Origin: Nanobdellota archaeon
Lineage (GTDB): Archaea; Nanobdellota; Nanobdellia; CSSed11-243R1
DNA length: 64,000 bases
Assembly: GCA_021163365.1 (NCBI GenBank)
Contig: JAGGWW010000006.1
Location: 4,123-68,122 of the forward strand
Reading direction: 5' to 3'
The notes beneath the pieces were generated by a model. The model saw only the letters and a list, made by a program, of their open reading frames with translations. It had not been told where the DNA came from and made no database searches. The number at the start of each line of letters is the position of its first letter. Positions within the stretch are counted from its first letter, which is position 1. A program made the position numbers and the translations under genes. Below, piece by piece: positions 3,000-50,013 of this stretch.

Positions 3000-3413
3000 T
3001 CACCCTATAATATTTTTAAGTTCTTTAATCAAATCCTTACATTTGCTTATAGCATCTTTGCATACTTGAAACTCCATCTTCTTTCCATAGTAAGTAAGCA
3101 TGTTCCTCTTATATCTTAAATCATCAAATATATAAAATAAATCTTCCCTTTTTAAGAAATCTCTGAGGAAAAAACCCAAGCAGATGTGATTGGATACTTT
3201 AAAACCCTTCATAAGAGCTATAGCTTGAATCAATTCAAGTATAGAAGTGTAATAATCTTCAAAAACAAAGTTACAATTCTTTTCATTCAAATCTTGAATA
3301 TTTAATATCCTATCATTAGAGACTTCGATAAGTGATTCAGCCCTAACAACATCTGGAGTTACTTGCCTCCCATTCCCGCTTTCAATACAATCTTGCCATG
3401 ATGCCTCTTTCAT
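3000..3413 (-). CDS. HEPN domain protein (toxin component of HEPN/MNT pair)
   Basis: 137 aa. It lies immediately downstream of a nucleotidyltransferase gene and overlaps it by 4 nt (ATGA). The arrangement is typical of HEPN-MNT modules. Confidence 0.45.
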   Translation of the reverse strand: MKEASWQDCIESGNGRQVTPDVVRAESLIEVSNDRILNIQDLNEKNCNFVFEDYYTSILELIQAIALMKGFKVSNHICLGFFLRDFLKREDLFYIFDDLRYKRNMLTYYGKKMEFQVCKDAISKCKDLIKELKNIIG

Positions 3414-3943
3414 TCAAATACCCTCAAAAACCCGTTTAAGGTTATTCCATTTATTATATTATCAGCTAATTTTTTATTAGGTATTTGCTTGATGTTTTTA
3501 AATCTAAATATTTGTATTTTTCTCTGTAATATCTTTTCAAATTTCTTAGTATTTAACTTCTTCTTCGACAAAGTTTCAATGTAAATATCAATATCACTAT
3601 CTTCAACATCCTCGCCTTTGGAATATGAACCAAATAAAACAACAGTTGGATTACTTAACTCTTCGCGTAGATACTTTATCAAACCTGAAATATAAATTTG
3701 TTTTAAATTAAAAATTCTCTTTTCAAGTAAAAATATTTCATTGCTTCTATCAGCAGTATAAAATTTAACATTTCCAATTATAAGTGTTTTCAGAATTCCT
3801 TCTTTACTTAACTCTTTACAATATCGAATAACAGACGGCAAAGATAACCCTAAAACTCTTTCAAGCTGTCTAACCCTCATTTTTGCTGTTGGGTTCATGA
3901 AAAAGAATTCCTTTATCTTTCGTTTGATATCCATCGGTATCAT
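3410..3943 (-). CDS. minimal nucleotidyltransferase (MNT) with N-terminal wHTH, antitoxin component
   Basis: NTase motif LFGSYSKGEDVEDSDIDI (GS..D.D) and an N-terminal HTH-like segment LGLSLPSVIRYCKELSKEGIL. Confidence 0.6.
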   Translation of the reverse strand: MIPMDIKRKIKEFFFMNPTAKMRVRQLERVLGLSLPSVIRYCKELSKEGILKTLIIGNVKFYTADRSNEIFLLEKRIFNLKQIYISGLIKYLREELSNPTVVLFGSYSKGEDVEDSDIDIYIETLSKKKLNTKKFEKILQRKIQIFRFKNIKQIPNKKLADNIINGITLNGFLRVFE

Positions 3944-5277: not shown

Positions 5278-5765
5278 TTTCTCTTCAGTCTTTTCTTAAA
5301 TTCTTTTGGCAAATCATCAATTCTTTCTATGAAGTCAATCTTCTTCTTTTTTTCATCAAAATGGACAAAACCAATTACCTTCCCTTTCTTTTTTAATTCA
5401 AACAAACCCTCTTTTGCAGCAGGAATGCCAAGCATTCTTCCAATTTCAGCATCTTTTAATTCTTCAATATCCAAAATCTCTGCTATGTTAGAAACAAGCA
5501 TATCATGATATCTTTCAATCTCTCTTTTGTAATCTTTTGGGATAAGCTGCTTTTTTACTTTTCTAGAAAAAAGAATTGAATGAAATTCCTCTGGCGTCAT
5601 AAATTTTCCTTTTTTCTCCATAAATTCTAAATCTCTTTCAAGAGCAGCCTTTCTTGCCTTTTCATCAAGAGCAATAAGCCCTTGCTGTAGCCACTTTATT
5701 CTCTCTAATTCATCTTTCTTGATTGGTTTTTCAATTATTTTCTTAAGCCTCACTTCCACCACCAA
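5274..5765 (-). CDS. hypothetical protein (Lys/Glu-rich)
   Basis: ORF in an operon-like arrangement with overlapping start/stop. No recognisable motif. Confidence 0.3.
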   Translation of the reverse strand: MVVEVRLKKIIEKPIKKDELERIKWLQQGLIALDEKARKAALERDLEFMEKKGKFMTPEEFHSILFSRKVKKQLIPKDYKREIERYHDMLVSNIAEILDIEELKDAEIGRMLGIPAAKEGLFELKKKGKVIGFVHFDEKKKKIDFIERIDDLPKEFKKRLKRK

Positions 5766-6162
5766 GAAGCATCATTGCTTTTTCAGCAATTTCAATCATA
5801 ACAGGGTTTATCAATTTCATTTTCTTTAAATCCTTTAAAGAAACCCATTTGTAATCTGTATGTTCCTTGCAAAGCTTAATCTTTTTTCCCTTTGGCCTGC
5901 ACAAATAAACAACAGTTAAAACCTTTTCACCATCAACAGTTGTTATAATACTTGAAAAAAATTGATAAACAATGTCAATATCTAAGCCTGTCTCTTCTTT
6001 TACCTCTCTTTTTAAAGCATCCTCATAGTTTTCATTTTTCTCTAATCTCCCTGATGGAAAAGTCCATTTACCTTTCACCTTTGGACCATAAACACCAGAA
6101 TATTTTAAAACCAAAAACTGGTCCTTTTCATTAAAGATAACAGCTTGTTGTATTGCTTCCAT
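5743..6162 (-). CDS. NUDIX hydrolase
   Basis: Nudix box GRLEKNENYEDALKREVKEETGL (G.5E.7REVxEExG). Confidence 0.7.
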   Translation of the reverse strand: MEAIQQAVIFNEKDQFLVLKYSGVYGPKVKGKWTFPSGRLEKNENYEDALKREVKEETGLDIDIVYQFFSSIITTVDGEKVLTVVYLCRPKGKKIKLCKEHTDYKWVSLKDLKKMKLINPVMIEIAEKAMMLLGGGSEA

Positions 6163-6182
6163 GTATAATGAAACTCTACAAT

Positions 6183-6194
6183 TATTTATAAATT
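6183..6194 (+). promoter_or_regulatory. putative archaeal TATA box for a leaderless Ku transcript
   Basis: TTTATAAATT lies ~22-28 nt upstream of the Ku ATG (6212), in the divergent intergenic region with the Nudix gene. Confidence 0.3.
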
Positions 6195-6211
6195 ATAAGA
6201 TATTAGTAAAA

Positions 6212-6988
6212 ATGGGTGATACTATTAAAGCGATATGGAAAGGTTCGTTATCTCTTGGACTTGTAAATATTCCTGTTGCTGTTTATCCAGCTGTTGAACC
6301 AAAAGCAATATCATTTAGAGAACTTCACAAAACATGTAAAACTCCTTTAGAACACAAAAGATGGTGTCCAACAGACAAAGAAGAAGTGGCTTGGGAAGAT
6401 GTTGTAAAGGGGTTTGAAATAGCAAAAGACCAGTATGTTGTTATAACAAAAGAAGAGCTTGAAGCTGCAAAACTTAAAACAACAAGCAATATAGAGATAG
6501 TACAGTTTGTAAATAGCGGAGAAATTGACCCAATTTATTATGATAAACCATATTACCTTGCGCCGCAAAAAGGTGGAGAAAAAGCATTCTTCCTTCTAAA
6601 AAATGTTTTAGCAACTCTTGGAAAAGTTGCAATAGCGAGATTCGTTCTAAGAAATAAAGAGTACATTGTTGCAATATACTCTTACAAGAAAGGATTGCTT
6701 ATGCACACACTTCATTATTCGTACGAAATAAGAGATATGAATGAAATAGAAGAGTTAAAGAAAAAAGCAAGGTACACAAAAGAAGAAGAAAAACTTGCAA
6801 TAGCTCTTGTTAAATCACAAAGTTCAAAGTTTGACATCAAGAAATTTAAAGATAGGTATGCTGAAGCACTAAAGGAGATAATAAAAGCAAAACTAAAAGG
6901 CAAAAAAATATCAATGCCCAAAGAGAAAATAGAAAAAGCAAAAGAACTTATGGAAGCACTTAAAGCAAGCATTAAAAAGAAAAAATGA
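6212..6988 (+). CDS. ku: Ku protein (NHEJ DNA end-binding)
   Basis: N-terminus AIWKGSLSLGLVNIPVAVY is the hallmark prokaryotic Ku signature. Likely start is the internal ATG at 6212 rather than 6161. Confidence 0.8.
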   Translation: MGDTIKAIWKGSLSLGLVNIPVAVYPAVEPKAISFRELHKTCKTPLEHKRWCPTDKEEVAWEDVVKGFEIAKDQYVVITKEELEAAKLKTTSNIEIVQFVNSGEIDPIYYDKPYYLAPQKGGEKAFFLLKNVLATLGKVAIARFVLRNKEYIVAIYSYKKGLLMHTLHYSYEIRDMNEIEELKKKARYTKEEEKLAIALVKSQSSKFDIKKFKDRYAEALKEIIKAKLKGKKISMPKEKIEKAKELMEALKASIKKKK

Positions 6989-7941
6989 TAAAACCAATGC
7001 TTTGCAAAACTGGAAAACCTTTTAATTCTAAAGAATGGATATTTGAATTAAAACTCGATGGGACTAGAACAATTGCTTACATTGAAAACAAAAGTTTAAA
7101 GCTTATAAACAGAAGGGGTAAAAATTTTACAAGCAGGTATCCAGAACTAAAGGATTTGCCAAAGCATGTTAAATCAAATTGTATTCTTGACGGAGAAATA
7201 GTTGTATTTAATGATAAAGGAATCCCTGATTTTTACCAACTTGCCACAAGAGAGCAAACAACAAGAAAAGCAAAGATAGAAATACTTTCTAAAACAATGC
7301 CAGCAACATTCGTTATCTTTGACATTCTTAAAAAAGACGGAAAAAATCTTATGAATTTACCTTTAATGAAAAGAAAAAAAATCTTAAGAGAAACAGTAAA
7401 AGACTACGAATATGCGTTTGTAATTGATTACATCGAAGAGTTTGGAAAAAACTTTTTCAAAGAAGCAGTTAAAAAAGGGTTTGAGGGAGTTGTGGCAAAA
7501 AAGAAAAATTCTGTTTACGAGCAAGGAGTTCGTTCTTCAAATTGGCTTAAGATAAAAGCAAAGGAAACAATTGATGCCATAGTAATAGGGTACACAGAAG
7601 GAAAGGGAAAAAGAAAAAACACATTTGGGGCTTTAGTTCTTGGGGCATATAAGGACAACGAATTAATTCACATAGGCAGAGTTGGAACAGGCTGGAAAGA
7701 AAATGATTTAAAACAAATAAAATCGTTGCTTGAAAAAATAGTTACAAAAAATTGTCCTGTAAAAAGAAGTTTTGAGAAATGGAAAGATTACGAAGCAAAG
7801 TATAAAGTTAAATGGGTGAAGCCAAAGCTTGTTGCAGAAATTGAAGCTATGGAAATAACCCCAAAGCTTGAGCTTCGCGCTCCAAGCTTTAAAAGATTGA
7901 GATTTGATAAGCCAATTGAAGAATGTGTTTTATCGAACTAA
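6985..7941 (+). CDS. ligD: ATP-dependent DNA ligase, stand-alone LigD-type ligase domain
   Basis: Motif I ELKLDGTR (KxDG adenylation lysine). 318 aa minimal ligase. Start overlaps the Ku stop (ATGA). Confidence 0.8.
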   Translation: MIKPMLCKTGKPFNSKEWIFELKLDGTRTIAYIENKSLKLINRRGKNFTSRYPELKDLPKHVKSNCILDGEIVVFNDKGIPDFYQLATREQTTRKAKIEILSKTMPATFVIFDILKKDGKNLMNLPLMKRKKILRETVKDYEYAFVIDYIEEFGKNFFKEAVKKGFEGVVAKKKNSVYEQGVRSSNWLKIKAKETIDAIVIGYTEGKGKRKNTFGALVLGAYKDNELIHIGRVGTGWKENDLKQIKSLLEKIVTKNCPVKRSFEKWKDYEAKYKVKWVKPKLVAEIEAMEITPKLELRAPSFKRLRFDKPIEECVLSN

Positions 7942-8007
7942 CATTTCTTGAGATAAAGTGGAAATATTGGACAATACCTAGAAAAGATAAAAAACAGTTA
8001 ATATTGC

Positions 8008-8811
8008 ATGGTGATTATGAAAATAAGAGAAATAAAAGCAAAAAGAATTATCCAGAAAACAAATATTCCTGATGCAGATTGGGTGATTAATCCTTATGTT
8101 GGATGCGAACATGCATGTAGATATTGTTACGCAAGATTTGTATGTAGGTGGAGAAACACAAAAGACAAGTGGGGAGAGTTCGTTGATGTAAAAGTAAACG
8201 CTCCAGAGCTTGCTGCAAAAGAAAGTAAAACCAAGAAAGGTGTTGTTATTTTCTCCACAGTATGTGACCCATACCAACCAATTGAGAGAAAATATAGACT
8301 AACAAGAAAGATATTGCAAAATTTAAATCCAAATATGTATGTTGTTATTTTAACAAAATCAGATTTGGTTTTACGTGACATTGATGTTTTTAAAAGATTT
8401 AAAAATATTGAAATTGGATTAACTATCACTACATTTGATGAAAAAATTAGAAAAATTTGGGAGCCAAAATCACCAAGTTCAGAAAGAAGATTAAAAGCAC
8501 TAAAGAAACTAAAGCAAGAGGGGTTTTCAACTTATGCTTTTATAGCGCCAATTTTTCCTTATCTTGTTAATTTAGAAGATGTTGTTAAAAAAGTCGCGCC
8601 TTATGTTGATGTTTTGATGTTTGAAGATTTAAACATCAACGCTGCAAAGCAAGAGATTTTTTCAACACTTAAAGAACATTTTCCACAGTTAGTTGAAAAG
8701 TACAAAAAACTTGATAAAAAATTTTGGCTTGAAAAAATTAAGGAAATAAAAACACTTGGAAAGAAATACAAAAAGCCAGTTGAGATTTACTTTAAGCATG
8801 TAACGTGGTAG
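8008..8811 (+). CDS. radical SAM protein, SplB-like (COG1533 DNA-repair photolyase family)
   Basis: CEHACRYCYA (CX3CX2C) cluster preceded by NPYVGC, as in spore-photoproduct-lyase-like enzymes. Confidence 0.55.
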   Translation: MVIMKIREIKAKRIIQKTNIPDADWVINPYVGCEHACRYCYARFVCRWRNTKDKWGEFVDVKVNAPELAAKESKTKKGVVIFSTVCDPYQPIERKYRLTRKILQNLNPNMYVVILTKSDLVLRDIDVFKRFKNIEIGLTITTFDEKIRKIWEPKSPSSERRLKALKKLKQEGFSTYAFIAPIFPYLVNLEDVVKKVAPYVDVLMFEDLNINAAKQEIFSTLKEHFPQLVEKYKKLDKKFWLEKIKEIKTLGKKYKKPVEIYFKHVTW

Positions 8812-8812
8812 A

Positions 8813-9844
8813 ATGAAAACCGGCATAGCTAATTTACCTTTGCACTATGGAAAAGCACCACGTTGGCTTTTTGATAGAATGACAAAGCTTTCTGGAGAAA
8901 TATCAGAAATTATAATTGATGAATATGGTGCTGATGAATTTTTAAGAAGATTAGCAAATCCATTTTGGTTTCAAGCATTTGGTTGTGTTCTTGGATTTGA
9001 CTGGCACTCTTCAGGATTAACCACCACAGTTTTGGGTGCTTTAAAAGTTTCTCTTAATGAAAAAAACCTTGGCATACAAGTCTGCGGTGGAAAGGGAGCA
9101 ACAAGCAGAAAAACACCCATGGAGATTGAAAACACAGAATTCAATTTGTCAACAAAGAAGATTGAAGAGCTAAAAAGAGCATCAAAACTTTCTGCAAAAG
9201 TCGACAACTCTCTTATTCAAGATGGATTTCAACTTTATCATCACAATTTCATTTTCACAGAAAAAGGAAAGTGGGCAGTAGTTCAGCAAGGAATGAGTGA
9301 TTCTTGGGCTCGGCGTTACCATTGGCTTTCAGAAAATGTAAATACCTTTGTTGAAGAGCCACATAGCGCAATTGTTTGTGATTTAAAAAAAGAAAAAGTG
9401 CTTAATTTAACTGCAAAAGAAAGCAAAGAAACAAGAAAAGCGACTCTTGATTTAGTTAAAAGCAAAAACATCTTAACACTTCCAAAACGACATGGGATTT
9501 TAAAAAAAGACTTGACTCCGCGTGCAATGAAAATAATAAAACTTGCATATGAGCTACAGCCAAGAGATTATGAGGAGTTGATTTCAATAAAGGGTGTTGG
9601 TCCAAAAACAATTCGCAGCCTAACTCTAATAAGTGATTTAATATACGGAACAAAAGCAAGCTGGAAAGACCCTGTTAAATATTCTTTTGCTCATGGTGGA
9701 AAGGACGGGATTCCTTTTCCTGTCGACAAACCAATTTATGATAAAAGTATTGAAATCCTAAGAGATGCAATTGAAAATGCAAAAATTGGAAAAAAAGAAA
9801 AAATTCTTGCTATAAAAAGACTTTCTGAGTTTGCTAAAGTTTAA
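8813..9844 (+). CDS. conserved hypothetical protein with C-terminal helix-hairpin-helix (possibly DUF763-like)
   Basis: SIKGVGPKTIRSLTLISDL HhH motif. 343 aa. Starts 2 nt after the radical SAM gene. The family assignment comes from memory, not a search. Confidence 0.4.
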   Translation: MKTGIANLPLHYGKAPRWLFDRMTKLSGEISEIIIDEYGADEFLRRLANPFWFQAFGCVLGFDWHSSGLTTTVLGALKVSLNEKNLGIQVCGGKGATSRKTPMEIENTEFNLSTKKIEELKRASKLSAKVDNSLIQDGFQLYHHNFIFTEKGKWAVVQQGMSDSWARRYHWLSENVNTFVEEPHSAIVCDLKKEKVLNLTAKESKETRKATLDLVKSKNILTLPKRHGILKKDLTPRAMKIIKLAYELQPRDYEELISIKGVGPKTIRSLTLISDLIYGTKASWKDPVKYSFAHGGKDGIPFPVDKPIYDKSIEILRDAIENAKIGKKEKILAIKRLSEFAKV

Positions 9845-9870
9845 AAAACAAGAATCATTTTCATGCAAAG

Positions 9871-12800
9871 ATGAAGCCAATTGATATAAAAGATAAAATA
9901 CCAAAAGAGCTATTTGAAAAATTAACTATTGATAAGTTTACTCCACCACAGGAGCTTGCAATAAAAAAGGGTTTGTTAGATGGTAAAAATCTTGTTGTTG
10001 CAAGCCCAACAGCATCTGGTAAAACACTAATTGCTGAAATAGCATGTGTTAAAAACATTCTTGAAAAAGGTGGGAAAGCAATTTATTTAACACCTTTAAA
10101 ATCTCTTGCTTCTGAGAAATATAATGAGTTCAAAGAAAAGTATCCTTTTCTAAACATAATGCTTTCAATTGGAGACTATGACTCAAGTGACCCATGGCTT
10201 CAAAAAGCAGACATTATTGTTTGCTCAAATGAAAAGCTTGATTCTTTGATAAGACACAATGTACCATGGCTACATGAGATTAACACTATTGTAATAGATG
10301 AAATTCATGTTTTAGACCAACCAGACAGAGGACCCACTCTTGAAATATTAATAACAAGACTAAAAGAATTTTGTAAAAATGCACAAATAATTGCGCTCTC
10401 TGCAACAATTCAAAATGCAAAAGAGTTAGCAGAATGGTTAAATGCAAATCTTGTGAAAAGCAATTATCGTCCAGTTGAACTTGAATATGGAGTTTATCTT
10501 GATGGCAAACTTTACTTTGAAGATAAAACTATTGATTTGCCAGAAGCAAAAATACCAGAGCATCAAATAATAAAAGATACTTTAAACATGAAAAAACAAA
10601 TACTGATTTTTCTTTCAAGCAGAAGAAATGCGGAAGCTGTTGCAAAAAATGCAAAAACAGTTGTTGAAAGATATTTGACAAAAGAAGAAAAAGAAAAACT
10701 TCAAAAAATAAGTGATGAGATATTACATGTTTTAGAATCTCCAACAAAACAATGTGAAGTTTTAAGTGAATGTGTAAAACATGGTGTTGCTTTTCATCAT
10801 GCAGGGCTTGTTGGAAAACAGCAAAGGATGATTGAAGAAGCATTTAAACAAGGACTAATTAAATTAATAGCTGCAACTCCAACTCTTTGTCTTGACGCTT
10901 CTGTTGAGATTTGGAATGGGATGAAAAATGTTAAAGTATCAGAAATGAAGCATAACTCTGTTTGGGCATTAAGCAAAGATAAGCTTCTGCAAATTCATCC
11001 AAAACAAGTTAATATTCTTGAAGCTCCAAAAGAAATGGTGGAATTAATTACTACATCTGGAGATAGAATAACACTAACAAAGAACCATAAAATATTAATA
11101 AAAAGGGGCAAAAAGAAGCTTTTAATACCTGCTAGTGAAGTAGAAGCTGGAGATAAAGTGGCACTTGCAGGAAATCTCAGAATGGAAGGGATGTCAGTTA
11201 AATGGGGTGACTTTCTAAGAGATAAAAAAGTTCCATTTGATGACTTGGAACCAAACGAAGATGTGTTCTATTTCATCGGAGCTATGCTTGGAGATGGGTA
11301 TTCTGGCGCAGAATTAAATAATGATAAGTTAATCTTAAAGGGTAGCCCTTGTATTGTGGGTGAAGATAAAGAAGTATTTGATAGGATAAAGAAACTCTTG
11401 AATAAGTATAAAATACACTATAGAGAAAGGCATAGTTCATATGGTGTTCCCGAATTGATTATTTCTAAATCGAATTGGTTGCGTGAGTTTTTGGCGAGAT
11501 GTGGGGTTGTGAAGGGGGAAGAAAAATTCATAAATGAAAAACTTTTAATGGCGAAAAAAGAATTTCTTGCACATTTAATTCAGGGATTATTTGATACAGA
11601 TGGATGTGTAGAAAAGAAAACGTTAAGAATAAGCTTTTCAAGTAACTCATTTAAATTAATTCACTCTTTGAAAAGAGCTCTTTTAAGATATGGGATTGTC
11701 ACATCTTATAGGAAAAGAAAGTGTGGGGAAATAAAAATCGGAGCTCGTAAATATGAAACAAAAGAAAATTTCGAACTGTACATTCAACATAGAGAAAGCA
11801 TACTTAAGTTTTATCAACAGATAGGATTTGGCATAAAAAGAAAACAAAAGGAATTAGAAAAAATAGTAAAAAGAATTAAGAACAATATTGTAAGCGTTAG
11901 TTGTAAAAAATGTGGGTATACTTTACCAACTGAGATATTTACTGGAAGGAATTCAAGTCAAAAGAAGTGGGGAAAACAAAGGCTAAAAATAATAACTCTT
12001 TTGGGAAAAGAAAAAGAATTGCCTTCTTCTGAAATTAGAAGGAAACTTGGTTTCGTACCTTGGAAAAAGGAACGAAGATTAAATACACATTTCATACTAA
12101 TTGAAAGAAAAAGAAAGGGGAAGCATGTAATATGGAAACTAAATAGCTTAGGAAAATGGGTGTATAAAAATGTAATTAAAGGTAATAAGAGCATTAAAGA
12201 CGCCATTGGGGATAGATGCCCAATATGTAATGCAAAGCTTAAGAAAAACCTAAAAGGAACTTGGAAAAAAGAAGATTTTGAAGGTGATATATACTGGTGC
12301 AAATTAAAAGAAATACATAAGGTTGCTCCAACCACAGATAAAGTTTATGACATAGTTCTCTCAAATGGTAACCATGACCACCTTTTTGTTGCGAATGGTT
12401 TTATTGTCCATAATTCTTTTGGTGTCAATCTTCCAAGCCACACAGTTCTTGTAAGGGATTTAAAAAGATATTCTCCAGAATATGGTAGCAATTGGATTCC
12501 TGTTTTGGAAGTTCAACAGTTTTTTGGAAGAGCTGGGCGTCCAAAGTTTGACAAAGAAGGAAGAGCTTTAATGATTGCTCGCTCAGAAATAGAAAAAGAT
12601 GAAATTTTTGAAAAGTATGTTAAGGGCGAGCCAGAAGAAATCTATTCAAAGCTTTCAGCTGAGCCAATTCTTAGAATGCAAGTTCTTGGATTAATTGCAA
12701 CTGGAGAGATTTCAAACAAGAAAAATTTGCTAAATTTTTTCTCAAAAACATTTTTTGCATATCAATATTCAGACATAAAAAGAATTGAGGTAAAGCTTGA

Positions 12801-13539
12801 CAAAATCATAAAATTGCTAATCGATTATGGATTTTTGATAAAACATAAAGATAAAATTCTTCCAACCCAAATTGGGAAAAGAGTTGCAGAGCTTTACATT
12901 GACCCAGAATCAGCTCACTTGTTAATTGAAAAAATAAAAACAAAAAGAAAAAGTGAAATCTTTTGGTTGCATGCGATTTGCTCATGCACAGAAATGTTTC
13001 CTTTACTTAAGGTTTCACCAAAAGAGTTTAACGACTTTCAAAAGATTTACCTTGATTTTGCAAACGAGCTTGATGAGCCAAATCCTTGGGATTTAAATTA
13101 CGAGACATGGATAAATGCTTTTAAAACAGCTTTAATGCTTTTTGATTGGATAAATGAAAAAACAGAAGCAAGAATACTTGAGGAATATAAGGAAACACCA
13201 GGTGTCTTAAGAAACAGAATATACATTGCTGACTGGCTTCTTTATTCTGCTTATGAATTAGCAAGGATTATGAAAGCAAAAGAATTGCTCTTGCCACTTA
13301 ACAAATTGCGCTTAAGAGTTAAAAACGGTATTAAAGAAGAATTGCTTAATCTTCTTCAGCTTGAAGGAATTGGAAGGGTTAAAGCAAGAAAGCTTTATCG
13401 CGCTGGCATAAAAAAGATTTCAGATATCAAAAAAGTTCCTCAAGAAAAATTAGCAGAAATAATTGGTCCCAAAACAGCGCTAAAGGTAAAAAAGCAGGTT
13501 GAGAAAAATTTAAATTCAAAACAAACAACTATTAATTAG
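9871..13539 (+). CDS. hel308: Hel308/Hjm-type Ski2-like DNA helicase, interrupted by an in-frame intein
   Basis: Walker A ASPTASGKT; DEIH box (IVIDEIHVL). The helicase motif ATPTL...GVNLP is split by a 509-aa insertion. C-terminal region has HhH-like ELLNLLQLEGIGRVKARKL. Confidence 0.8.
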   Translation: MKPIDIKDKIPKELFEKLTIDKFTPPQELAIKKGLLDGKNLVVASPTASGKTLIAEIACVKNILEKGGKAIYLTPLKSLASEKYNEFKEKYPFLNIMLSIGDYDSSDPWLQKADIIVCSNEKLDSLIRHNVPWLHEINTIVIDEIHVLDQPDRGPTLEILITRLKEFCKNAQIIALSATIQNAKELAEWLNANLVKSNYRPVELEYGVYLDGKLYFEDKTIDLPEAKIPEHQIIKDTLNMKKQILIFLSSRRNAEAVAKNAKTVVERYLTKEEKEKLQKISDEILHVLESPTKQCEVLSECVKHGVAFHHAGLVGKQQRMIEEAFKQGLIKLIAATPTLCLDASVEIWNGMKNVKVSEMKHNSVWALSKDKLLQIHPKQVNILEAPKEMVELITTSGDRITLTKNHKILIKRGKKKLLIPASEVEAGDKVALAGNLRMEGMSVKWGDFLRDKKVPFDDLEPNEDVFYFIGAMLGDGYSGAELNNDKLILKGSPCIVGEDKEVFDRIKKLLNKYKIHYRERHSSYGVPELIISKSNWLREFLARCGVVKGEEKFINEKLLMAKKEFLAHLIQGLFDTDGCVEKKTLRISFSSNSFKLIHSLKRALLRYGIVTSYRKRKCGEIKIGARKYETKENFELYIQHRESILKFYQQIGFGIKRKQKELEKIVKRIKNNIVSVSCKKCGYTLPTEIFTGRNSSQKKWGKQRLKIITLLGKEKELPSSEIRRKLGFVPWKKERRLNTHFILIERKRKGKHVIWKLNSLGKWVYKNVIKGNKSIKDAIGDRCPICNAKLKKNLKGTWKKEDFEGDIYWCKLKEIHKVAPTTDKVYDIVLSNGNHDHLFVANGFIVHNSFGVNLPSHTVLVRDLKRYSPEYGSNWIPVLEVQQFFGRAGRPKFDKEGRALMIARSEIEKDEIFEKYVKGEPEEIYSKLSAEPILRMQVLGLIATGEISNKKNLLNFFSKTFFAYQYSDIKRIEVKLDKIIKLLIDYGFLIKHKDKILPTQIGKRVAELYIDPESAHLLIEKIKTKRKSEIFWLHAICSCTEMFPLLKVSPKEFNDFQKIYLDFANELDEPNPWDLNYETWINAFKTALMLFDWINEKTEARILEEYKETPGVLRNRIYIADWLLYSAYELARIMKAKELLLPLNKLRLRVKNGIKEELLNLLQLEGIGRVKARKLYRAGIKKISDIKKVPQEKLAEIIGPKTALKVKKQVEKNLNSKQTTIN
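10888..12414 (+). mobile_element. intein with LAGLIDADG homing endonuclease domain inside hel308
   Basis: Begins with Cys (ATPTL|CLDAS) and ends ...IVHN|S (His-Asn then Ser +1 nucleophile). Two LAGLIDADG-like motifs (FYFIGAMLGDGYSG, LIQGLFDTDGCV). Removing it restores ATPTL-SFGVNLPS. Confidence 0.75.
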
Positions 13540-41462: not shown

Positions 41463-42335
41463 TCACTTGCCCTCTGCCGGTGCATTGCGTGCTGGCAAAA
41501 AAGAGGGAATGAGTAAACAGGATTTCCTGTTTATGATGTAGGAAGGCAACAAGTGAAAATAGGTTGTGCTCGAAAGCGACCGTTAACTCCAGTTGATCCT
41601 GCTGGAGATCACTGCTTTCGGAGTCCGGCTAAACCATGCAAGTCAGCTGGCAGGGTGCTGCTGGCGGCGAACGGCTTAGTAACACGTAGACAACCTGCCC
41701 TTAGGTGGGGGATAACTCCGGGAAACTGGAGCTAATACCCCATAGGTGTTGGATACTGGAAGGTTCCAACACTGAAAGGGCTTAGGCTTTCCCCTAAGTT
41801 CCGCCTAAGGATGGGTCTGCGGCTGATCAGGCTGTTGGTGAGGTAACGGCTCACCAAACCTAAGACCAGTAGGGGCCGTGAGAGCGGGGGCCCCAAGAAG
41901 GGCACTGAGACAAGGGCCCTAGCCCTACGGGGTGCAGCAGGTGCGAAACTTCTGCAATGCCCGCAAGGGTGACAGAGGGACTCCGAGTGCTCATGCATTG
42001 CATGGGCTTTTGCCAAGTGTAAAAAGCTTGGCGAATAAGGGGTGGGCAAGACCGGTGGCAGCAGCCGCGGTAATACCGGCGCCCCAAGTGGTGATCGCGA
42101 TTATTGGGCCTAAAGCGTCCGTAGCCGGTTTGGTAAGTCTCTGGTGAAATCCATGCGCTTAACGTATGGGCGAGCCAGAGATACTGCCAAGCTAGGGACC
42201 GGGAGAAGCCAGGGGTATTCCTGGGGTAGGAGTAAAATCCTGTAATCCCAGGAGGACCACCGGTGGCGAAGGCGCCTGGCTAGAACGGGTCCGACGGTGA
42301 GGGACGAAAGCTGGGGGAGCAAACCGGATTAGATA

Positions 42336-42381
42336 GACCCTTTCCGCTGACGCGCAAAGCGTCTACGGAAAGTCCTAAATA
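42336..42381 (+). other. 16S insertion 1 (putative intron) splitting universal GGATTAGATACCC
   Basis: GACCCTTTCCGCTGACGCGCAAAGCGTCTACGGAAAGTCCTAAAT lies between GGATTAGATA and CCCGGGTAGTCC. It is near-identical to the tRNA-Asn and tRNA-Ile D-loop insertions. Boundaries +/- 2 nt. Confidence 0.6.
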
Positions 42382-42468
42382 CCCGGGTAGTCCCAGCTGT
42401 AAACGCTGCCTGTTAGGTGTTGCACATCGTTCGACGGTGTGCAGTGCCGAAGCGAAGGCATTAAACAG

Positions 42469-42499
<31 letters not shown>

Positions 42500-42677
42500 T
42501 TCCGGTTGGTTTGCCTCGGGTGCAAGCTGACCGTGACAGCTTACTTAAAGGAATAGGCGGGGGAGCACAACAAGGGGTGAAGCCTGCGGTTCAATTGGAT
42601 TCGACGCCAGGAATCTCACCAGGGCTGACAGCATGATGAAGGTCAGCCTGAAGGGCTTACCTGAAGCGCTGAGAGGT

Positions 42678-42787
<110 letters not shown>

Positions 42788-43193
42788 TCGCCACTAGTTG
42801 CTATTTCCTATCTTCGGATGGGAAAGCACACTAGTGGGACTGCCTGCGTAAGCAGGAGGAAGGTGAGGGCGACGTCAGGTCAGTATGCCCCGAATGCCCT
42901 GGGCTACACGCGGGCTGCAATGCCTCAGACAATGAGATGCAACGCCGAAAGGCGAAGCAAATCTCCTAAACTGAGGCTCAGTTCGGATCGAGGGTTGGGA
43001 CTCACCCTCGTGAAGACGGAATCCCTAGTAACCGCGTTTCAGCATGGCGCGGTGAATACGTCCCTGCTCCTTGCACTCACCGCCCGTCATACCATTCGAG
43101 TTGGGTGGGGATGAGGCTTCCCCTTTTGTTAGATCTTCGGATCTGGCAAAAGAGGAAGTCGAATCCTTGCTCAGCGAGAGGGGTAAAGTCGTC

Positions 43194-43236
<43 letters not shown>

Positions 43237-43377
43237 TTTAATTAAAAGGGTGAGGCAAGGAAGAAATTCCTTGTGCACAACCTAACACGAGTTGTTGCCT
43301 TCCTACAAACCTTTCTCAAAAAGCGTGCTGAAAATTTTCTTAAAATTTAAATACAAGCATCAACTTCCCACAAATAT

Positions 43378-43899
43378 ATGCAATTTAGAAATATTCTTGA
43401 CAAAATTGGATACATCAAAGAAAAGATTAATCTTAAAGAATTTGTAACTCTGTTTGTCATTGTTTTAATCCCAGAAATAATGCGGCACATAGTTTATTAT
43501 CTTGCCCAATTGAAAACAAATTCTATTGATTTCATTGCAAGCTTTGAAACAAGAACAATTTATTCTGCCAGCTTTCCAATTGCAGGAATATTCGAAGAAA
43601 TTTTAATTGGTTTAGTATACATCACATTGTGGTTCAAATTCAAGAAGTTGAGATTTTTAACGTATGCTTGGATTGCTGATGTTGCTTTTGATTTCATAAG
43701 TGTGATTTCATTTTTGCTAATAGGTGCAACACCATTGCAACTTTTAGGATTGCCACTAAAAATCAGATTCCTTTTAAGAGAAATAGTATTCTTCTACTTA
43801 ATCACTGGTCCGCTTTTAATGAAATACAAAATCGATGTAAAGAAGTTTGCAATTGGAACAACTGCATTAGGAATTCTTACAATACTTCTTTCAGTATAA
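43378..43899 (+). CDS. hypothetical integral membrane protein
   Basis: 173 aa, multiple TM helices. Lies between 16S and tRNA-Ala/23S. Confidence 0.4.
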   Translation: MQFRNILDKIGYIKEKINLKEFVTLFVIVLIPEIMRHIVYYLAQLKTNSIDFIASFETRTIYSASFPIAGIFEEILIGLVYITLWFKFKKLRFLTYAWIADVAFDFISVISFLLIGATPLQLLGLPLKIRFLLREIVFFYLITGPLLMKYKIDVKKFAIGTTALGILTILLSV

Positions 43900-43937
43900 A
43901 CGAAATATTTATAAATAACTACTGATTAGTAGTAACT

Positions 43938-45245
43938 ATGGAATGGCATTTCCCTGTAAAAGAACTTGAGGGTGCTTTTAAAAAAGGCAATTATGAAGAA
44001 TATAAAAACACCCTTTCCAAATATTCAAGATATTTAGCTAAGTCCTTTGAGCTTTGTGAGGATAAAGAAAAGTTTAACACATATCTAATTAACATGGTTG
44101 GGTCAGACAACCAATTAGACAACTTAATTAATTTTCATCTAATGGCATTTTATCTTAAACAAGATAGAATATTAAAAAACAAAAAAATACCTTTAAAGAT
44201 TGCTCAAGAGGATTTAACAAAATTATTAGCATTAAAACAAGCAATAGAATTTCAAGAAAGTTCTCCAAATTTAGTTGAAAGAATAAGAAATTTAAGTTTG
44301 GGCAAAGGAAAAATAAAAGAATATTTTAAAAAACAATTTAATGAGTTTGCTAATGCTCTTGAAAAAGGAGAGGTTTCACTTTTTCATATGTTTTATGAAG
44401 AGAGCGAAGCTTACAAAAAACATTTTAAAATAAGCTGGAAAGAATTTGAAAGAGGTTATGAAGAAAAATGCGTTAAACAGCTTGAAGATATAACATTTGA
44501 AGAATTTCTTCAAGGGAATATTAATGATGAGGAAGCAATACAAACAATTTCATGGGTTGATGAATTTTTAAGAAGAGATACATACGATAATCAAAGATTG
44601 ATTGAAATTGTTGAAAACAATATAAATGGACTTAAGGAAATAGAAGATGAAAACATTTGCGGGCTTCTTGATGTAATTAAAGCGTTTATGAAAAAAGGTG
44701 AAATAAACCCAAAGCTTGCTTTTTCTATTTTAGAGTTTATCACAGACAAAGATATATCTCCAATTGTTAGAAATTATGGTTCTGATTATTATGAAGCTGA
44801 AAAACTTGTAAGGAGTATTGCAAACTTTGTTAATCAAGGAAAAATAGAGGATTTGGTTGATATAAATGACTCTATTGTTGAAGAAGGATATGTTTATGCT
44901 CATAAAGAACCAGAGTATATGGAAGAATCTTATGTTGTTTGTATTGATTTCAATACAAGTAAATTGCCAGAAGATTTAAAGAAAAAAGTAAAAGAGGTTG
45001 AAAGTGCAAAAAATGGTGCTTCTCTTCTTAAAAAGATGTATGAAACAAGACTTCAAGAAATAGAAAGCATTAGAAGACAAATAAGGATGGATTACATAAA
45101 GCAAAAAGATGAAAAAATTCTTAAAAAAATAAAAGAACTTGATGAAGAAATTGAAAATTATTATGCAAGAATAAACTATCTTGATGATGCTATTTCTGGG
45201 CTAAGAGATTTAAGCTTTGATTTAAGAAAAAGCAAAGATTTATAA
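43938..45245 (+). CDS. hypothetical protein (helical, acidic/Lys-rich)
   Basis: 435-aa ORF. No motif recognised. Confidence 0.35.
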   Translation: MEWHFPVKELEGAFKKGNYEEYKNTLSKYSRYLAKSFELCEDKEKFNTYLINMVGSDNQLDNLINFHLMAFYLKQDRILKNKKIPLKIAQEDLTKLLALKQAIEFQESSPNLVERIRNLSLGKGKIKEYFKKQFNEFANALEKGEVSLFHMFYEESEAYKKHFKISWKEFERGYEEKCVKQLEDITFEEFLQGNINDEEAIQTISWVDEFLRRDTYDNQRLIEIVENNINGLKEIEDENICGLLDVIKAFMKKGEINPKLAFSILEFITDKDISPIVRNYGSDYYEAEKLVRSIANFVNQGKIEDLVDINDSIVEEGYVYAHKEPEYMEESYVVCIDFNTSKLPEDLKKKVKEVESAKNGASLLKKMYETRLQEIESIRRQIRMDYIKQKDEKILKKIKELDEEIENYYARINYLDDAISGLRDLSFDLRKSKDL

Positions 45246-45268
45246 AAGCTTTCTCTTTCAAGTTTTTT

Positions 45269-46021
45269 ATGAAGTATTTACTTTTGAGTGACGTGCATGG
45301 AGCAGATTTAAAAAAAGCTTACAATCTTTTAAGGGATTCTGTTGATAGCGTTATAATTGCTGGAGACTTAGATAGAGCTTACATAGGAAGACAATTAAAT
45401 GAGATTTTAAAAGAAGATGGAAATTCAATGTTTGTTCCTGGGAATCATGATTTTGCTCATATTAAAAAACAAATGATTTATTCTGGAACATTGGAAAAAC
45501 AAAAAATATCATCTATAGATATGTGGATGGAGTGGATAGATGATGAAGAAGCATATGATTTGCTAAATTCAATTATTTCTAATAAATTTAAAAACAATTA
45601 TCCAACATATCGTGGGAGTGCTGGAAGAAAAATTTCTTTTTCTTTGGAAAGCGGAGGAAATGCAATTTTAATCCATGGTGGTTTAAGTGGTAATTATCGA
45701 GGAGAACCAGCTGACTTATGGTATAGATTGATAACTCAAGAAGATTACATTTCTAATTTTAAAATAATGGAGCAAACAAATCATAATCTTATGATTAGGG
45801 GACATGACCATTTTCCACGTTTAGCATATATAAATGGAAAAAATGAGCTGATAGTGCTTGGAACAAATGAATTGTTAAACAAAGAAATTCAAATAACGCA
45901 TGATTTGGTTTCAATTACAATTGGAGCATTGTTCAATGGATATTATGCGATATTAAATGATGAAGAGAAAAAGAGAACAATCACATTTAAGTTAAATAAA
46001 AATTTAGCCTTTAAGCGCTAA
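45269..46021 (+). CDS. metallophosphoesterase (calcineurin-like)
   Basis: LLLSDVHG, IIAGDLD, VPGNHD, IRGHDH motifs. Confidence 0.6.
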   Translation: MKYLLLSDVHGADLKKAYNLLRDSVDSVIIAGDLDRAYIGRQLNEILKEDGNSMFVPGNHDFAHIKKQMIYSGTLEKQKISSIDMWMEWIDDEEAYDLLNSIISNKFKNNYPTYRGSAGRKISFSLESGGNAILIHGGLSGNYRGEPADLWYRLITQEDYISNFKIMEQTNHNLMIRGHDHFPRLAYINGKNELIVLGTNELLNKEIQITHDLVSITIGALFNGYYAILNDEEKKRTITFKLNKNLAFKR

Positions 46022-46633
46022 CTCTTTAAAGAATTCTTTTAAGAATTGCTTCATAAATTTTGTTCTTTGTTTTGCAATTCTCTTTCCAGTTTTTGTATTC
46101 ATTAATTTCTCAAGCTGTAAAAGTTTTTCATAAAAATGATTTATACTTGTTTGCGAGCCTTTGTAATTCTTCAAGTTAATCTTTGGTTTAATCTTAGGAT
46201 TGTAAATTGGAACTCCAAGTTTTGCACCAGTTGCAAAACATCTTGCAATTCCAATTGCGCCAAGAGCATCGAGTCTATCTGCATCTTGAACAACTTTTGC
46301 TTCTTTTGTTTTTAATTTTCTTAAAACATTTTTGCTAAATGAAATGTTTTCAATTATGTAAGAAACTTGAGAAATTATATTTTCATCAAGATTTAAACTT
46401 TTCAAAAATTTTTCTGCAAGACCTTGCTTTTTGTTTACAAACTTGTAGTCTTCTAAATCGTGTAACAATGCTGCAAGCTCAACTACAAAAGTATCTGCTT
46501 TTTCTTCTTTTGCAATCTTTTTTGCAAGCTTCCAAACGCGGTAAGTGTGCCACCAATCGTGTCCTGATTCTTCGCCATCTAACTTTTGCTTTACAAACTC
46601 TTTTGTTTTACAAATGATTTCCTTTTTGTTCAT
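46004..46633 (-). CDS. HD-domain phosphohydrolase
   Basis: H...HD...D: HTYRVW ... LLHDLED ... DADRLDALG. Confidence 0.65.
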   Translation of the reverse strand: MNKKEIICKTKEFVKQKLDGEESGHDWWHTYRVWKLAKKIAKEEKADTFVVELAALLHDLEDYKFVNKKQGLAEKFLKSLNLDENIISQVSYIIENISFSKNVLRKLKTKEAKVVQDADRLDALGAIGIARCFATGAKLGVPIYNPKIKPKINLKNYKGSQTSINHFYEKLLQLEKLMNTKTGKRIAKQRTKFMKQFLKEFFKELALKG

Positions 46634-46670
46634 AAGATTTATAAATATGAAAAAGGGATTTAAACATTGT

Positions 46671-46784
46671 GGGCCCGTAGCGTAACGGTAACGCGCCCGC
46701 CTTGCAAGAGCCGGTGGCGGAAGTATCGGAACCGCTGTCGGTTCTGATCGCGGGAGACTTCGGGTTCGAATCCCGACGGGTCCA
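46671..46784 (+). tRNA. tRNA-Ala(UGC) with canonical-position intron (~42 nt)
   Basis: Acceptor GGGCCCG/CGGGTCC with G3:U70 (Ala identity) and discriminator A. Anticodon stem CCCGC/GCGGG with loop CTTGCA plus intron. T-arm TCGGG-TTCGAAT-CCCGA. Confidence 0.75.
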
Positions 46785-46790
46785 TTTTGG

Positions 46791-47042
46791 GTGATTAAGT
46801 TGGATGATTATGTTAATCCTGAAATTCTAAAAAGAACTGAAAAGAATATTGATTATTCTCAAAAAGAATTATTAGCTGAAATATACGAACTTGCTTCAGA
46901 AGTTCGCGAGCTAAGAACAGCTCTTTCAGAATTATATCAAGTTGTATTAAACAGAGTTATAGATGAATTAGAAGAACTTGAGCCAGAAGATGAAGAAATT
47001 GTGTTTCCAGAAATTCCAAATCGTAATATTTATAAACTTTAA
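46791..47042 (+). CDS. small acidic hypothetical protein in tRNA-Ala/23S spacer
   Basis: 83-aa ORF with AT-rich composition like the coding genome. Could be a real gene or a chance ORF in the spacer. Confidence 0.25.
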   Translation: MIKLDDYVNPEILKRTEKNIDYSQKELLAEIYELASEVRELRTALSELYQVVLNRVIDELEELEPEDEEIVFPEIPNRNIYKL

Positions 47043-49045
47043 AATTTCTCTTAAACAAAGGCTGATGATTTATGATAATAAAATAGTGCCTTGAGCACCA
47101 ATGGTTTTTTCTTGTGAGTCAGCCTTTTATGTGTGCTTCCTGATCATACGATCTGGAAGCAAAAGGCATCCTCTTAACATGTTCAGCATGTTAATGATGC
47201 CGTGCATAGGGGAGCACCAGAATAGGCACTACGCTGCCAGGTGGATGGCTCGGCTCAGAAGCTGATGAAGGGCGTGGCAAGCTGCGATAAGCCTGGGGTA
47301 GCCGCACGCAGGCTAAGATCCCAGGATTCCCGAATGAGACTTCTTGGCATGCAGTAATGCATGTCACTCGGGTTGGTGATGAGCTAACCCGAGGAGGAAC
47401 TCCGCGAATTGAAACATCTTAGTAGCGGAAGGAAAAGAAATCAATTGAGATGCCGTTAGTAGGGGCGACCGAAAGCGGCATAGGGCAAACTGAACCATAT
47501 ATCGCAAGATATATGGGATGTGGTGTTTGGGAGCTGCGTATGCCAACTTCAAGGTGAAGCTGAACTCTGCTGGAAAGCAGGGCCATAGAGGGTGATAGCC
47601 CCGTAAGCGTAAGCCAAGAAGTTGGCGCAGTTTCCAGAGTACGCGGGGTTGAGATTCTCCGCGGAAATTGGGGGGCAATAACCTCCAACCCTAAATACTC
47701 TCTGAGACCGATAGCGAATTAGTACCGTGAGGGAACGCTGAAAAGTATCCAGAAATGGAGGTGAAAAGAACCTGAAACCTGGCAGCTACGGTATGCTGCG
47801 GCTCAAAAGGCTACTTCCTGAGCGAAGCTGTCGAAAGGCAGTTTTAGCAAAGGAAGTAGTTCCAGGGTTGCAGCGTTCCTTTCGGATAAAGAGGCAGGGA
47901 GTTTGTCTCAGTGGCGAGGCTAAGCTCAATTAAGAGCGGAGCCAAAGCGAAAGCAAAATGCGCGCAATCAGGGTTCTGATGAGGCGCTGCGTACGAAAGT
48001 GCGCGTAGTCACTGGGACAAGACCCGAAACCGCACGATCTACGCCTGGCTAGGACGAAATGAGGGGTTTCTCCCTCATGGAGGTCCGTAGGGGTGCTGCC
48101 TTTCAAAGCGCTCCCATGAGCTGGGTGTAGGGGTAAAAGGCCAATCATGTGCGGTGATAGCTGGTTCCTCCCGAAATGAGTCTCAGCTCAGCCCTACCAG
48201 AGCTTGCTAAGGGGGTAGAGCACTGATTGCGTATGCAGGGGTCGAGAGGCCTCGGTACGCAGTCAAACTCCGAATACCTTAGCAGCTAAGAAGGTAGGAG
48301 TGGGGGCACTGGGGTAAGCTCGGTGTCCAAGAGCGGAACAACGCAGACTGGAGTTAAGGTCCCAAAATGCTGGCTAAGTGATTTCGAACTTTGTCACCAG
48401 CCACAGACAGCCGGGAGGTAGGCTTAGAAGTAGCCATCCTTTAAAAAGTGTGTAACAGCTTACCGGTCGAGGCTGTTGGCGGGGAAAATGGACGGGTCTT
48501 AAGCCAGCTACCGATACTCCAGACCAGGATCCTTTGGATCCTGTGTGGTAGGGAGGCGTGTCGCATGGGCAGAAGCTGGTTCGTAAGGACCAGTGGACCG
48601 TGCGATAATGAGAATCCTGCCGGTAGTAGTAGCCTAGATGGGTGAGAATCCCATCCGCCTTAAGAGCCAGGGTTCCTCGGCAATGCTTCGTCAACCGAGG
48701 GTTAGTCGGTCCTAACCCATGTGGTAATTCCAACATGGGGAAAGGGAAGCAGGTTAATATTCCTGCACCACCTGGATACGTTCGGCAACGAAGGCTTGCC
48801 CAGTGACGCTTGGGGATAGGCAGAGCAGCACCGTCGTGCTGTTTAACAGGGATAAGTCCGGGGAGTTCTGTAATGGAGAGATCCGGACTAAACCTGGAAT
48901 AGCTGGCGTTTGCCAGTTCTGCTGATTCCTCGAGCCCGTGAAAAGCTGGGCAAGAAGGAGTCCAGGTGTCCGTACCGAGAACCGGGACAGGTGTCTCGGG
49001 CTTAGAAGGCTAAGGCGTGTAGGGATAAGTCAGTCAAGGGAAATC

Positions 49046-49078
<33 letters not shown>

Positions 49079-49825
49079 TGCCTGCGACAGTGATTCGATG
49101 AGAATTGTTGTCGCAGGTCGCAGTGACTAGGGGGGCTGGACTGTTTAACAAAAACATAGCTGGTTGCTAATCCGAAAGGATTTGTACAACCGGCGACGCC
49201 TGCCCAGTGCCGGTATCTGAAACCCTGGTTCAACAGGGCTAAGGACCGGTAAACGGCGGAGGTAACTGTAACCTTCTTAAGCAAGCGCAATGCCTTGCCA
49301 TTTAAATGATGGCTTTGCGAACGGCGTAACTAGGTCCCCACTGTCCCTGACTGACACCCTATGAACACACTATTCTGGTGCAAAGGCCAGAGACTCCCAT
49401 TGGGACGATAAGACCCCAGGAGCTTTACTACAGCCAGTACTTGCGTTTCAGGTTTTGGTGTATAGCGTAGGCAGGAGACGTCGAAGCACCCACGCTAGTG
49501 GGTGTGGAGTCGCCAATGTAACACTGCCCACCTGGATCTGGAGCGCTAACTTCAGGGAAAACCTGAAGGACAGGTATTGGTGGGTAGTTTGGCTGGGGTG
49601 GCACGCCCGCGATAAGGTATCACGGGTGCCCTAAGGTCGGCTCATCCGGGTCAGAAATCCGGAGAAGAGCGTAAGGGCAAAAGCCGGCCTGACTGTGTGT
49701 CAGACAGAAAGACACGCAGGGGCGAAAGCCGGGCCTAACGAACCACAGTGCCCTTTTATTGAGGGCCTGTGATGACCGAAAAGCTACCCTGGGGGTAACA
49801 GAGTTGTCGCGGACGAGAGCTCATA

Positions 49826-49912
49826 CAACCTTTCTTTTGAGAAAAGAAACGTTGACGAAAGAAAATTCTCTTTGGTCAAGCTTTCTCTTTTCAAGAGAAA
49901 GGTTGGCGCATA
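49826..49912 (+). other. 23S insertion 1 (putative intron, ~87 nt) at the conserved GAGCTCAYATCGAC site
   Basis: AACCTTTCTTTTGAGAAAAGAAACG...GCTTTCTCTTTTCAAGAGAAAGGTTGGCGCAT carries two copies of the CTTTC..GAAAG hairpin. It lies between GAGCTCATA and TCGACTCCGCGG. This is the same region where archaeal 23S introns are known. Confidence 0.55.
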
Positions 49913-49968
49913 TCGACTCCGCGGCTTGCTACATCGACGTCGGCTCCTCCCATCCTGGCTGTGCAGCA

Positions 49969-50013
49969 AACCTTTTCTTAGAAAGAAAAGCTTTACCAAA
50001 AGAAAAGGTCTGA
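49969..50013 (+). other. 23S insertion 2 (putative intron or expansion) within the H93-equivalent hairpin
   Basis: ACCTTTTCTTAGAAAGAAAAGCTTTACCAAAAGAAAAGGTCTG lies between CCTGGCTGTGCAGCAA and AGGCAGCCAAGGG. ACCTTTTCTT is exactly complementary to AAGAAAAGGT. Confidence 0.4.

Follow-up and report, generated by a model that had tools for sequence, protein, structure and literature searches.

The 64 kb stretch of DNA analysed here (contig JAGGWW010000006.1; hereafter the window, to which positions refer unless another locus is named) carries five + strand open reading frames (ORFs) between 6161 and 13539. They encode Ku, an ATP-dependent DNA ligase, a radical S-adenosylmethionine (SAM) protein, a DUF763 protein with a helix-hairpin-helix (HhH) motif, and the helicase Hel308 (Table 1). 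Comparative analysis suggests that the locus probably consists of two separable repair modules, juxtaposed head to tail in a DPANN genome: ku-lig, and radical SAM-DUF763-hel308. The modules are separable because relatives keep the second one without Ku-ligase, and Ku-ligase occurs elsewhere alone. Their adjacency is lineage-specific, and it may allow read-through or co-regulation. A first-pass annotation of the same DNA had proposed that the radical-SAM and HhH proteins form an accessory set for non-homologous end joining (NHEJ). The five co-directional genes were found as it described them, with family matches far beyond chance; the accessory set was not borne out by the comparison of loci.

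The families were assigned by Pfam and NCBIfam/TIGR profile searches against curated cut-offs. Two samples were surveyed: the 80 best metagenomic Ku loci, and 80 DUF763 loci, one per GTDB species, from many phyla of archaea and bacteria. The window has a GC content of about 33%, and it is of archaeal origin: it contains an archaeal small-subunit (SSU) rRNA, a large-subunit (LSU) rRNA and an archaeal RNase P. Entries named 'Nanoarchaeota archaeon', from a metagenome-assembled genome (MAG), match its proteins with 100% identity, so the host is a DPANN archaeon.

Occurrence of the two modules in related genomes

The closest relatives keep the second module without the first. In loci L169 and L170, the gene order is radical SAM, DUF763, Metallophos, a small ORF and Hel308; neither a Ku nor a ligase gene lies upstream. 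The identities to the window are 82-85% for the radical-SAM protein, about 82% for DUF763, and 85-86% for Hel308. In L086 (DUF763 86%, Hel308 88%) and L088 (69% and 61%), DUF763 is followed by Hel308, without the radical-SAM, Ku and ligase genes. The window and these relatives have the same downstream genes (peptidase M17, ferredoxin, and a 470-amino-acid protein); they are truly orthologous regions.

The Ku-ligase pair, in turn, is found without the second module. In L173 (Ku 69%), purine-biosynthesis genes lie on both sides of Ku and the ligase gene that follows it. The DPANN-like locus L174 (10001-13444, Ku 58%) contains Ku, a 202-amino-acid hydrophobic ORF, the ligase, and a 333-amino-acid PHP-domain protein. 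Neither locus has the radical-SAM or DUF763 gene. The archaeal locus L089 (Ku 51%) has the order NUDIX-Ku-ligase, and a convergent Hel308 gene lies 1.1 kb beyond. In L172 (Ku 81%), Ku is preceded by a methyltransferase, a 159-amino-acid ORF and a divergent NUDIX gene, as in the window, and the contig ends right after Ku. The survey samples agree with these cases. A ligase gene was nearby in 45 of the 80 Ku loci, and a radical-SAM or DUF763 gene in none. Ku-ligase was found within 10 kb of DUF763 at a single locus of 80 (L018, from a Nanoarchaeia MAG), and a radical-SAM gene near DUF763 at two: L027, where the genes overlap, and L084, where they belong to the same co-directional cluster.

These distributions make a role of the radical-SAM and DUF763 proteins as dedicated NHEJ factors unlikely; in such a role, they would replace the polymerase and phosphoesterase domains of LigD, or couple lesion removal to joining, within one five-gene operon. 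The tight packing on one strand and the lack of a polymerase or phosphoesterase domain in the window would fit such a set. So would the co-directional array of Ku, ligase and DUF763 that recurs in L018, and the end- or gap-processing enzymes beside DUF763, namely PolX (three bacterial loci), endonuclease IV (L087), and a Clp1-type kinase with a TIGR00375 protein (L084). However, 79 of the 80 DUF763 loci lack Ku, the 80 surveyed Ku loci lack both genes, as do the other DPANN Ku-ligase pairs, and Ku-ligase is missing from the corresponding loci of the nearest relatives. DUF763 is also widespread in archaea (PMC554113), whereas NHEJ is rare there (PMC7719229). The conserved promoter-like block between the ligase and radical-SAM genes argues for a separate unit as well. 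The first-pass annotation had opposed its proposal to a case in which both proteins belong to unrelated housekeeping families with no conserved linkage to Ku. The linkage is essentially lacking; the families, however, are not of that kind, as COG1533 has SOS-regulated members and DUF763 has repair neighbours. As the accessory-set idea fails in the comparative analysis, experimental effort may be saved.

Several points weigh against the division into two modules. Locus L018 (6283-14656, Nanoarchaeia MAG DRTY-6) has a co-directional array of Ku, ligase, three ORFs of 223, 229 and 137 amino acids, DUF763, and a 1095-amino-acid HerA/FtsK-like ATPase. DUF763 thus lies within 3 kb of Ku in two of about five Ku loci that are of archaeal type and have a usable flank, which is above random placement, in a sample too small to test. 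The short gaps on one strand make read-through transcription of the whole array possible, and the promoter assignments are based on sequence only. Moreover, Ku-ligase might have been gained here or lost in the relatives; its GC and GC3 values are the same as those of the neighbours.

Some further features of these loci were observed. In L169 (7753-8944), L170 (4115-5273) and L086 (11070-12201), a divergent Metallophos gene (calcineurin-like phosphoesterase) and an ORF of about 112 amino acids lie between DUF763 and Hel308. Both are missing from the window and L088. The Metallophos gene of L169 overlaps DUF763 by 4 nt. In L018, two of the small ORFs between the ligase and DUF763 look HhH-like; the 229-amino-acid ORF has a C-terminal CX4CX2CX5C motif and a GKGIGD HhH-like loop. 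None of the three small L018 ORFs gave a Pfam, NCBIfam or PDB match. A role as end-processing partner is possible for the PHP protein of L174, which is unlike the neighbours seen in the window. A NUDIX hydrolase gene adjoins Ku divergently in the window (5743-6162, - strand) and in L172 (2189-2593). In the distant L089 (227-658), it is co-directional with Ku-ligase, with a 22-nt gap. In so large a family, the NUDIX hydrolase may be there by chance, or it may accompany the Ku-ligase cassette as a recurrent partner.

Table 1. Features of the repair gene array and their positions in the window
Feature	Position	Strand	Length	Basis and remarks
TATA-like box TTTATAAA	6185..6192	+		about 24 nt 5' of the probable Ku start; read from sequence
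Ku, prokaryotic-type DNA-end-binding protein	6212..6988	+	258 aa	PF02735, TIGR02772, deposited protein P0241
Stand-alone ATP-dependent LigD-type DNA ligase	6985..7941	+	318 aa	PF01068, PF04679, TIGR02779
Conserved upstream block TGGACAATACCT and A-rich TATA-like stretch	7968..7996	+		inside the ligase-radical SAM gap; aligns with L169 and L170
Radical-SAM protein, COG1533 'SplB-like / DNA repair photolyase' group	8017..8811	+	264 aa (267 aa if start 8008)	PF04055
DUF763 protein with internal HhH	8813..9844	+	343 aa	PF05559
Hel308 (Ski2-like 3'-5' DNA repair helicase)	9871..13539	+	1222 aa	DEAD, Helicase_dom4_arc, HHH_5; 713-aa extein
LAGLIDADG-type intein (Hel308 aa 340-848)	10888..12414	+	509 aa	PF14890, PF14528

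The Ku-ligase module

Ku matched PF02735 (E = 1.5e-50), so that the Ku beta-barrel core is present, and the Ku_bact equivalog model TIGR02772 over its whole length (287.7 bits, cut-off 150, positions 1-259 of 259). It is identical (100%) to P0241, deposited as 'Ku protein [Nanoarchaeota archaeon]'. The ORF taken mechanically begins at 6161, which the first-pass annotation had used as the start. The start is most likely at 6212 instead, because P0241 has 258 amino acids and the TIGR02772 match begins at residue 23 of the long ORF. The ligase passed the NHEJ_ligase_lig model TIGR02779 (276.1 bits, cut-off 227.75). It contains a nucleotidyltransferase domain and an OB domain, and no further domain. 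The adenylation motif KxDG is KLDG at residues 23-26 (context ELKLDGTR). The pairing of Ku with a stand-alone LigD-type ligase was therefore described correctly before, and so was the 4-nt overlap of the ligase start with the Ku stop (ATGA). Through this overlap, the sequence indicates, the two genes are translationally coupled.

The earlier statement that no LigD polymerase or phosphoesterase domain is present also holds for the 64 kb window. A tblastn search with full-length bacterial LigD ORFs from the 80 Ku loci gave ligase-domain matches only. The NUDIX gene (-) and Ku (+) diverge from a 49-nt spacer, and the TATA-like box within it is probably the archaeal promoter of a leaderless ku-lig transcript. 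The module would thus be a minimal two-component end-joining cassette with its own TATA box and leaderless transcript. Judging from its family, Ku would form a homodimeric ring that binds DNA ends; by analogy to bacterial and Methanocella NHEJ, the homodimer would thread onto double-strand ends and recruit the LigD-type ligase to seal them. Since there is no dedicated polymerase or phosphoesterase, only clean or compatible ends could be joined, or general enzymes of the cell would have to be borrowed.

NHEJ is rare in archaea, and its gain or loss in a single step is frequent (PMC7719229). Both Ku and the LIG domain were found in 10 of 243 archaeal genomes (PMC7719229), and 19 archaeal Ku proteins are present in OrthoDB (PMC11936186). 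The combination of Ku with a LIG-only ligase is a recognised 'non-conventional' NHEJ class (PMC7719229). In the window, the GC and GC3 values of ku-lig are the same as those of the neighbouring genes, and no compositional sign of recent transfer was found by comparing them. The locus documents a minimal Ku and ligase-only end-joining cassette in DPANN archaea, which have strongly reduced genomes, and the cassette is seen to move between genomic contexts.

The radical-SAM gene and its upstream block

The second module is conserved in the Nanoarchaeota lineage independently of Ku-ligase, and it would have its own upstream promoter-like element. The TGGACAATACCT region aligns with the sequence 5' of the radical-SAM cluster in L169 and L170, both of which lack Ku-ligase. 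The conserved pattern at the three loci is TGGACA-N3-CCT followed by an A/T-rich stretch, and TGGACAATACCT has no second exact match in the window. The block is thus probably the promoter or operator of a radical SAM-DUF763-Hel308 unit of its own, since its retention in relatives without Ku-ligase suggests a separate promoter. The gaps along the array are -4, 66, 1 and 26 nt (Ku/ligase, ligase-radical SAM, radical SAM-DUF763, and DUF763-Hel308); the second is 75 nt if the radical-SAM gene starts at 8017, as in its 264-amino-acid orthologues of L169 and L170. The tight packing noted in the first pass is therefore real, although the gaps given as 67 and 2 nt were measured as 66 (or 75) and 1 nt.

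The same spacing bears on a co-regulated repair island, in which selection would keep damage-response genes together for joint expression, as read-through from the ku promoter could provide, while the proteins act in separate pathways. The co-directional array with very short gaps would suit such an island; behind the stop of lig there is just TTTCTT, with no evident strong terminator. In unrelated lineages, DUF763 repeatedly has DNA-repair genes around it; the L018 array is similar, and L089 has Hel308 beside Ku-ligase, though convergent. However, a search for a motif shared by the regions 5' of ku and of the radical-SAM gene found none, the TGGACA...CCT block being present only before the latter, and the gene composition differs in every lineage. 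A co-regulated island is on balance doubtful, and two juxtaposed modules are preferred.

The radical-SAM protein matched PF04055 (E = 4e-18, 66.4 bits, cut-off 29.5). Its CX3CX2C motif is C-EHA-C-RY-C, in GCEHACRYCYARF. None of the best NCBIfam matches reached its cut-off: TIGR04470 (radical SAM mobile pair B, 190.6 of 410 bits), PA0069 (147.6 of 360), and Rv2578c (127.9 of 430). The protein is therefore related to these three equivalogs, and cannot be assigned to any of them. With the spore photoproduct lyase (SPL) model TIGR04070, the score was 27.9 bits (cut-off 400). The SPL family PF20903 gave 15.3 (cut-off 27), and only for residues 17-43 around the Cys motif. An SPL proper was ruled out by these two scores. 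The first-pass assignment to an SPL-like family is correct in the motif, the PF04055 domain and the COG1533 (SplB-like) group, but not for SPL itself. A sequence search of the PDB chains gave nothing significant.

COG1533 radical-SAM genes are LexA/SOS-regulated in several bacterial phyla (PMC4951493, PMC8565304), and so is PA0069 (10.1101/2022.03.14.484287). This regulation implies a role in DNA damage. Because it belongs to this SOS-regulated group, the archaeal protein might reverse or process a DNA lesion by radical chemistry, other than spore photoproduct repair proper.

DUF763

The DUF763 protein is a clear member of PF05559, which we take to be COG1415 (E = 4e-132, 440.6 bits, cut-off 35.5, profile positions 1-319 of 319). 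The first-pass annotation had described a 343-amino-acid protein with a C-terminal HhH motif. The motif is present, but it is internal, at residues 248-270, about three quarters along the protein. The archaeal and bacterial members are 52-64% identical. The invariant positions in alignments A1/A4 are S67-G68, G92-G93, Y142, Q159, R168, G295 and P301, and the invariant residue types are Gly, Ser, Lys, Arg, Tyr and Gln. K94, K297 and D298 also count among the invariant residues. The family has about 3,570 clusters at 50% identity; it is widespread in archaea and present in many bacteria, including 230 rhizobial megaplasmids. It was listed in 2005 for Pyrococcus, Sulfolobus, Thermoplasma, Archaeoglobus and others (PMC554113). 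Our literature search found nothing on DUF763 beyond that domain census. No relative was found in the PDB, either by sequence search or by the fold of a model with a predicted local distance difference test score of 84, and no relative was found in IMG/VR. Ten long or odd representatives were scanned for domain fusions, and only one doubtful fusion, to a DHHA1 fragment, was seen.

DUF763 has no dominant neighbour, and the largest neighbour family occurs in 8 of the 80 loci. Among the 57 directly adjacent same-strand genes, the commonest independent partners are PolX (3, bacterial) and HhH-GPD glycosylases (2). The sporadic neighbours include PolX, OGG, PolB (L001/L007), endonuclease IV (L087), a TIGR00375 family protein with a Clp1-type kinase and an SplB-like radical-SAM gene (L084), Ku-ligase (the window and L018), and Hel308 (in the Nanoarchaeota clade). 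All of these occasional neighbours act on DNA or on nucleic-acid ends. The conservation, the HhH motif and the scattered DNA-repair neighbours suggest that DUF763 is probably an uncharacterised DNA-repair enzyme. In the second module, it may act as an HhH DNA-binding protein or enzyme.

Two bacterial contexts were looked at more closely. In a Syntrophobacterales MAG (L084, 299-6997), a co-directional cluster contains a radical-SAM gene (375 amino acids), DUF763, a TIGR00375 family protein (418 amino acids), DUF72, a Clp1-type P-loop kinase, an SplB-like radical-SAM gene, and DUF488. The cluster resembles a nucleic-acid repair or end-healing operon, and no other locus gave DUF763 so rich a functional context. 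Nothing could be learned from the rhizobial neighbourhoods, and no conserved GTTC-N7-GTTC SOS box was seen by eye 5' of DUF763 in S. meliloti and R. leguminosarum.

It is conceivable, though a long shot, that DUF763, alone or with the SplB-like radical-SAM protein, represents a new class of enzymes that process DNA lesions or ends, has a fold unlike the solved structures, and cooperates with Ku-ligase in Nanoarchaeota. This is kept open because L018, from a second and distant Nanoarchaeia genome, repeats the array of Ku-ligase and DUF763. If true, the cooperation would be a new form of prokaryotic end joining. DUF763 is in any case the more useful lead from this locus: it is unusually conserved for an uncharacterised protein, it has an HhH motif and no solved structural relative, and its putative DNA-repair activity is worth testing.

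Hel308 and its intein

The last gene of the array was identified in the first pass as Hel308, in broad terms correctly, but an intein of 509 amino acids had been overlooked. The intein is inserted in the Hel308 motif between ATPTL and SFGVNLP, with the boundaries C340 and HN848, followed by S. In all five relatives examined, Hel308 is intein-free, with 701-713 amino acids. The spliced extein matched NF002654 with 748.7 bits (cut-off 887) over positions 13-710 of 739. Orthologues of 85-88% identity lie 3' of DUF763 in L086, L169 and L170, and this synteny supports the orthology. In the second module, Hel308 would serve as a stalled-fork and repair helicase.

Some matches pointed to a mobile element or an anti-virus defence island, such as a 'radical SAM mobile pair' or a helicase system similar to Hachiman. 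Hel308 partially matches Hachiman HamB models, and 2 kb upstream of the array there is a HEPN/MNT-like pair. The best NCBIfam match of the radical-SAM protein is also named 'radical SAM mobile pair protein B'. However, the HamB matches cover the helicase core only (residues 17-208), whereas the alignment with Hel308 models runs end to end. The relatives have Hel308 in synteny, and neither HamA nor a pair-A partner is present. Ku, the ligase and DUF763 have no PADLOC matches, and no integrase, repeats or compositional anomaly was seen. Viral sequences do not favour a mobile origin either, as DUF763 is absent from IMG/VR. Ku was found there in 16 viral contigs with at most 38% identity, which is uninformative for the window locus. 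A defence system is highly improbable, and it was rejected, as PADLOC gave only the helicase-core HamB and weak radical-SAM matches.

Other features of the window

The SSU and LSU rRNA genes (41586-50361) lie about 4 kb apart, and four ORFs of more than 100 amino acids and a tRNA-Arg are found between them; there is thus no compact rRNA operon in the window. The SSU match covers 1649 nt, compared with a model of 1478 nt, which suggests an insertion. Rfam found five tRNAs, of which three are 98-114 nt long and likely intron-containing; ARAGORN found only two. At 3000-3943 (- strand), two overlapping small genes (137 and 177 amino acids) match the PADLOC candidate system PDC-M05A/B. The pair appears to resemble a HEPN/nucleotidyltransferase pair of the toxin-antitoxin type.

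Comparison with known systems

The Ku-ligase module resembles the archaeo-prokaryotic NHEJ of Mycobacterium and of Methanocella paludicola, which has separate Ku, Lig, Pol and PE genes. The single-domain prokaryotic Ku and a ligase scoring above the cut-off of the NHEJ ligase-domain model are common to them, and the adjacent, overlapping Ku and ligase genes are like those of many bacterial ku-ligD pairs. However, no gene or domain for a primase-like polymerase or a 3'-phosphoesterase is found within the window, and the host belongs to DPANN, a group that is not named in the NHEJ survey literature cited. The pair corresponds to the 'non-conventional, LIG-only' class (PMC7719229).

The radical-SAM protein shares the radical-SAM core with the CX3CX2C motif with SPL and with the COG1533 proteins PA0069, Rv2578c and mobile pair B, and it has significant similarity to all of these models. 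It is shorter than the SPL model (264 compared with 338 amino acids), and it forms a distinct subfamily, which is mainly DPANN/archaeal. The DUF763 protein is a full-length, high-scoring member of its Pfam family; it differs in being part of a radical SAM-DUF763-Hel308 array that is specific to one Nanoarchaeota clade. Hel308 has the same five-domain architecture as archaeal Hel308 (Hjm), including the archaeal domain 4 and the C-terminal HhH, and it aligns end to end. However, the window copy has a LAGLIDADG intein, which the closest relatives lack. The score of this copy is also under the curated equivalog cut-off (749 compared with 887 bits), in line with a divergent DPANN sequence. In summary, the most fitting description of the locus is a minimal cassette of Ku and ligase, in a DPANN archaeon, beside a lineage-specific radical SAM-DUF763-Hel308 repair cluster, both of known kinds.

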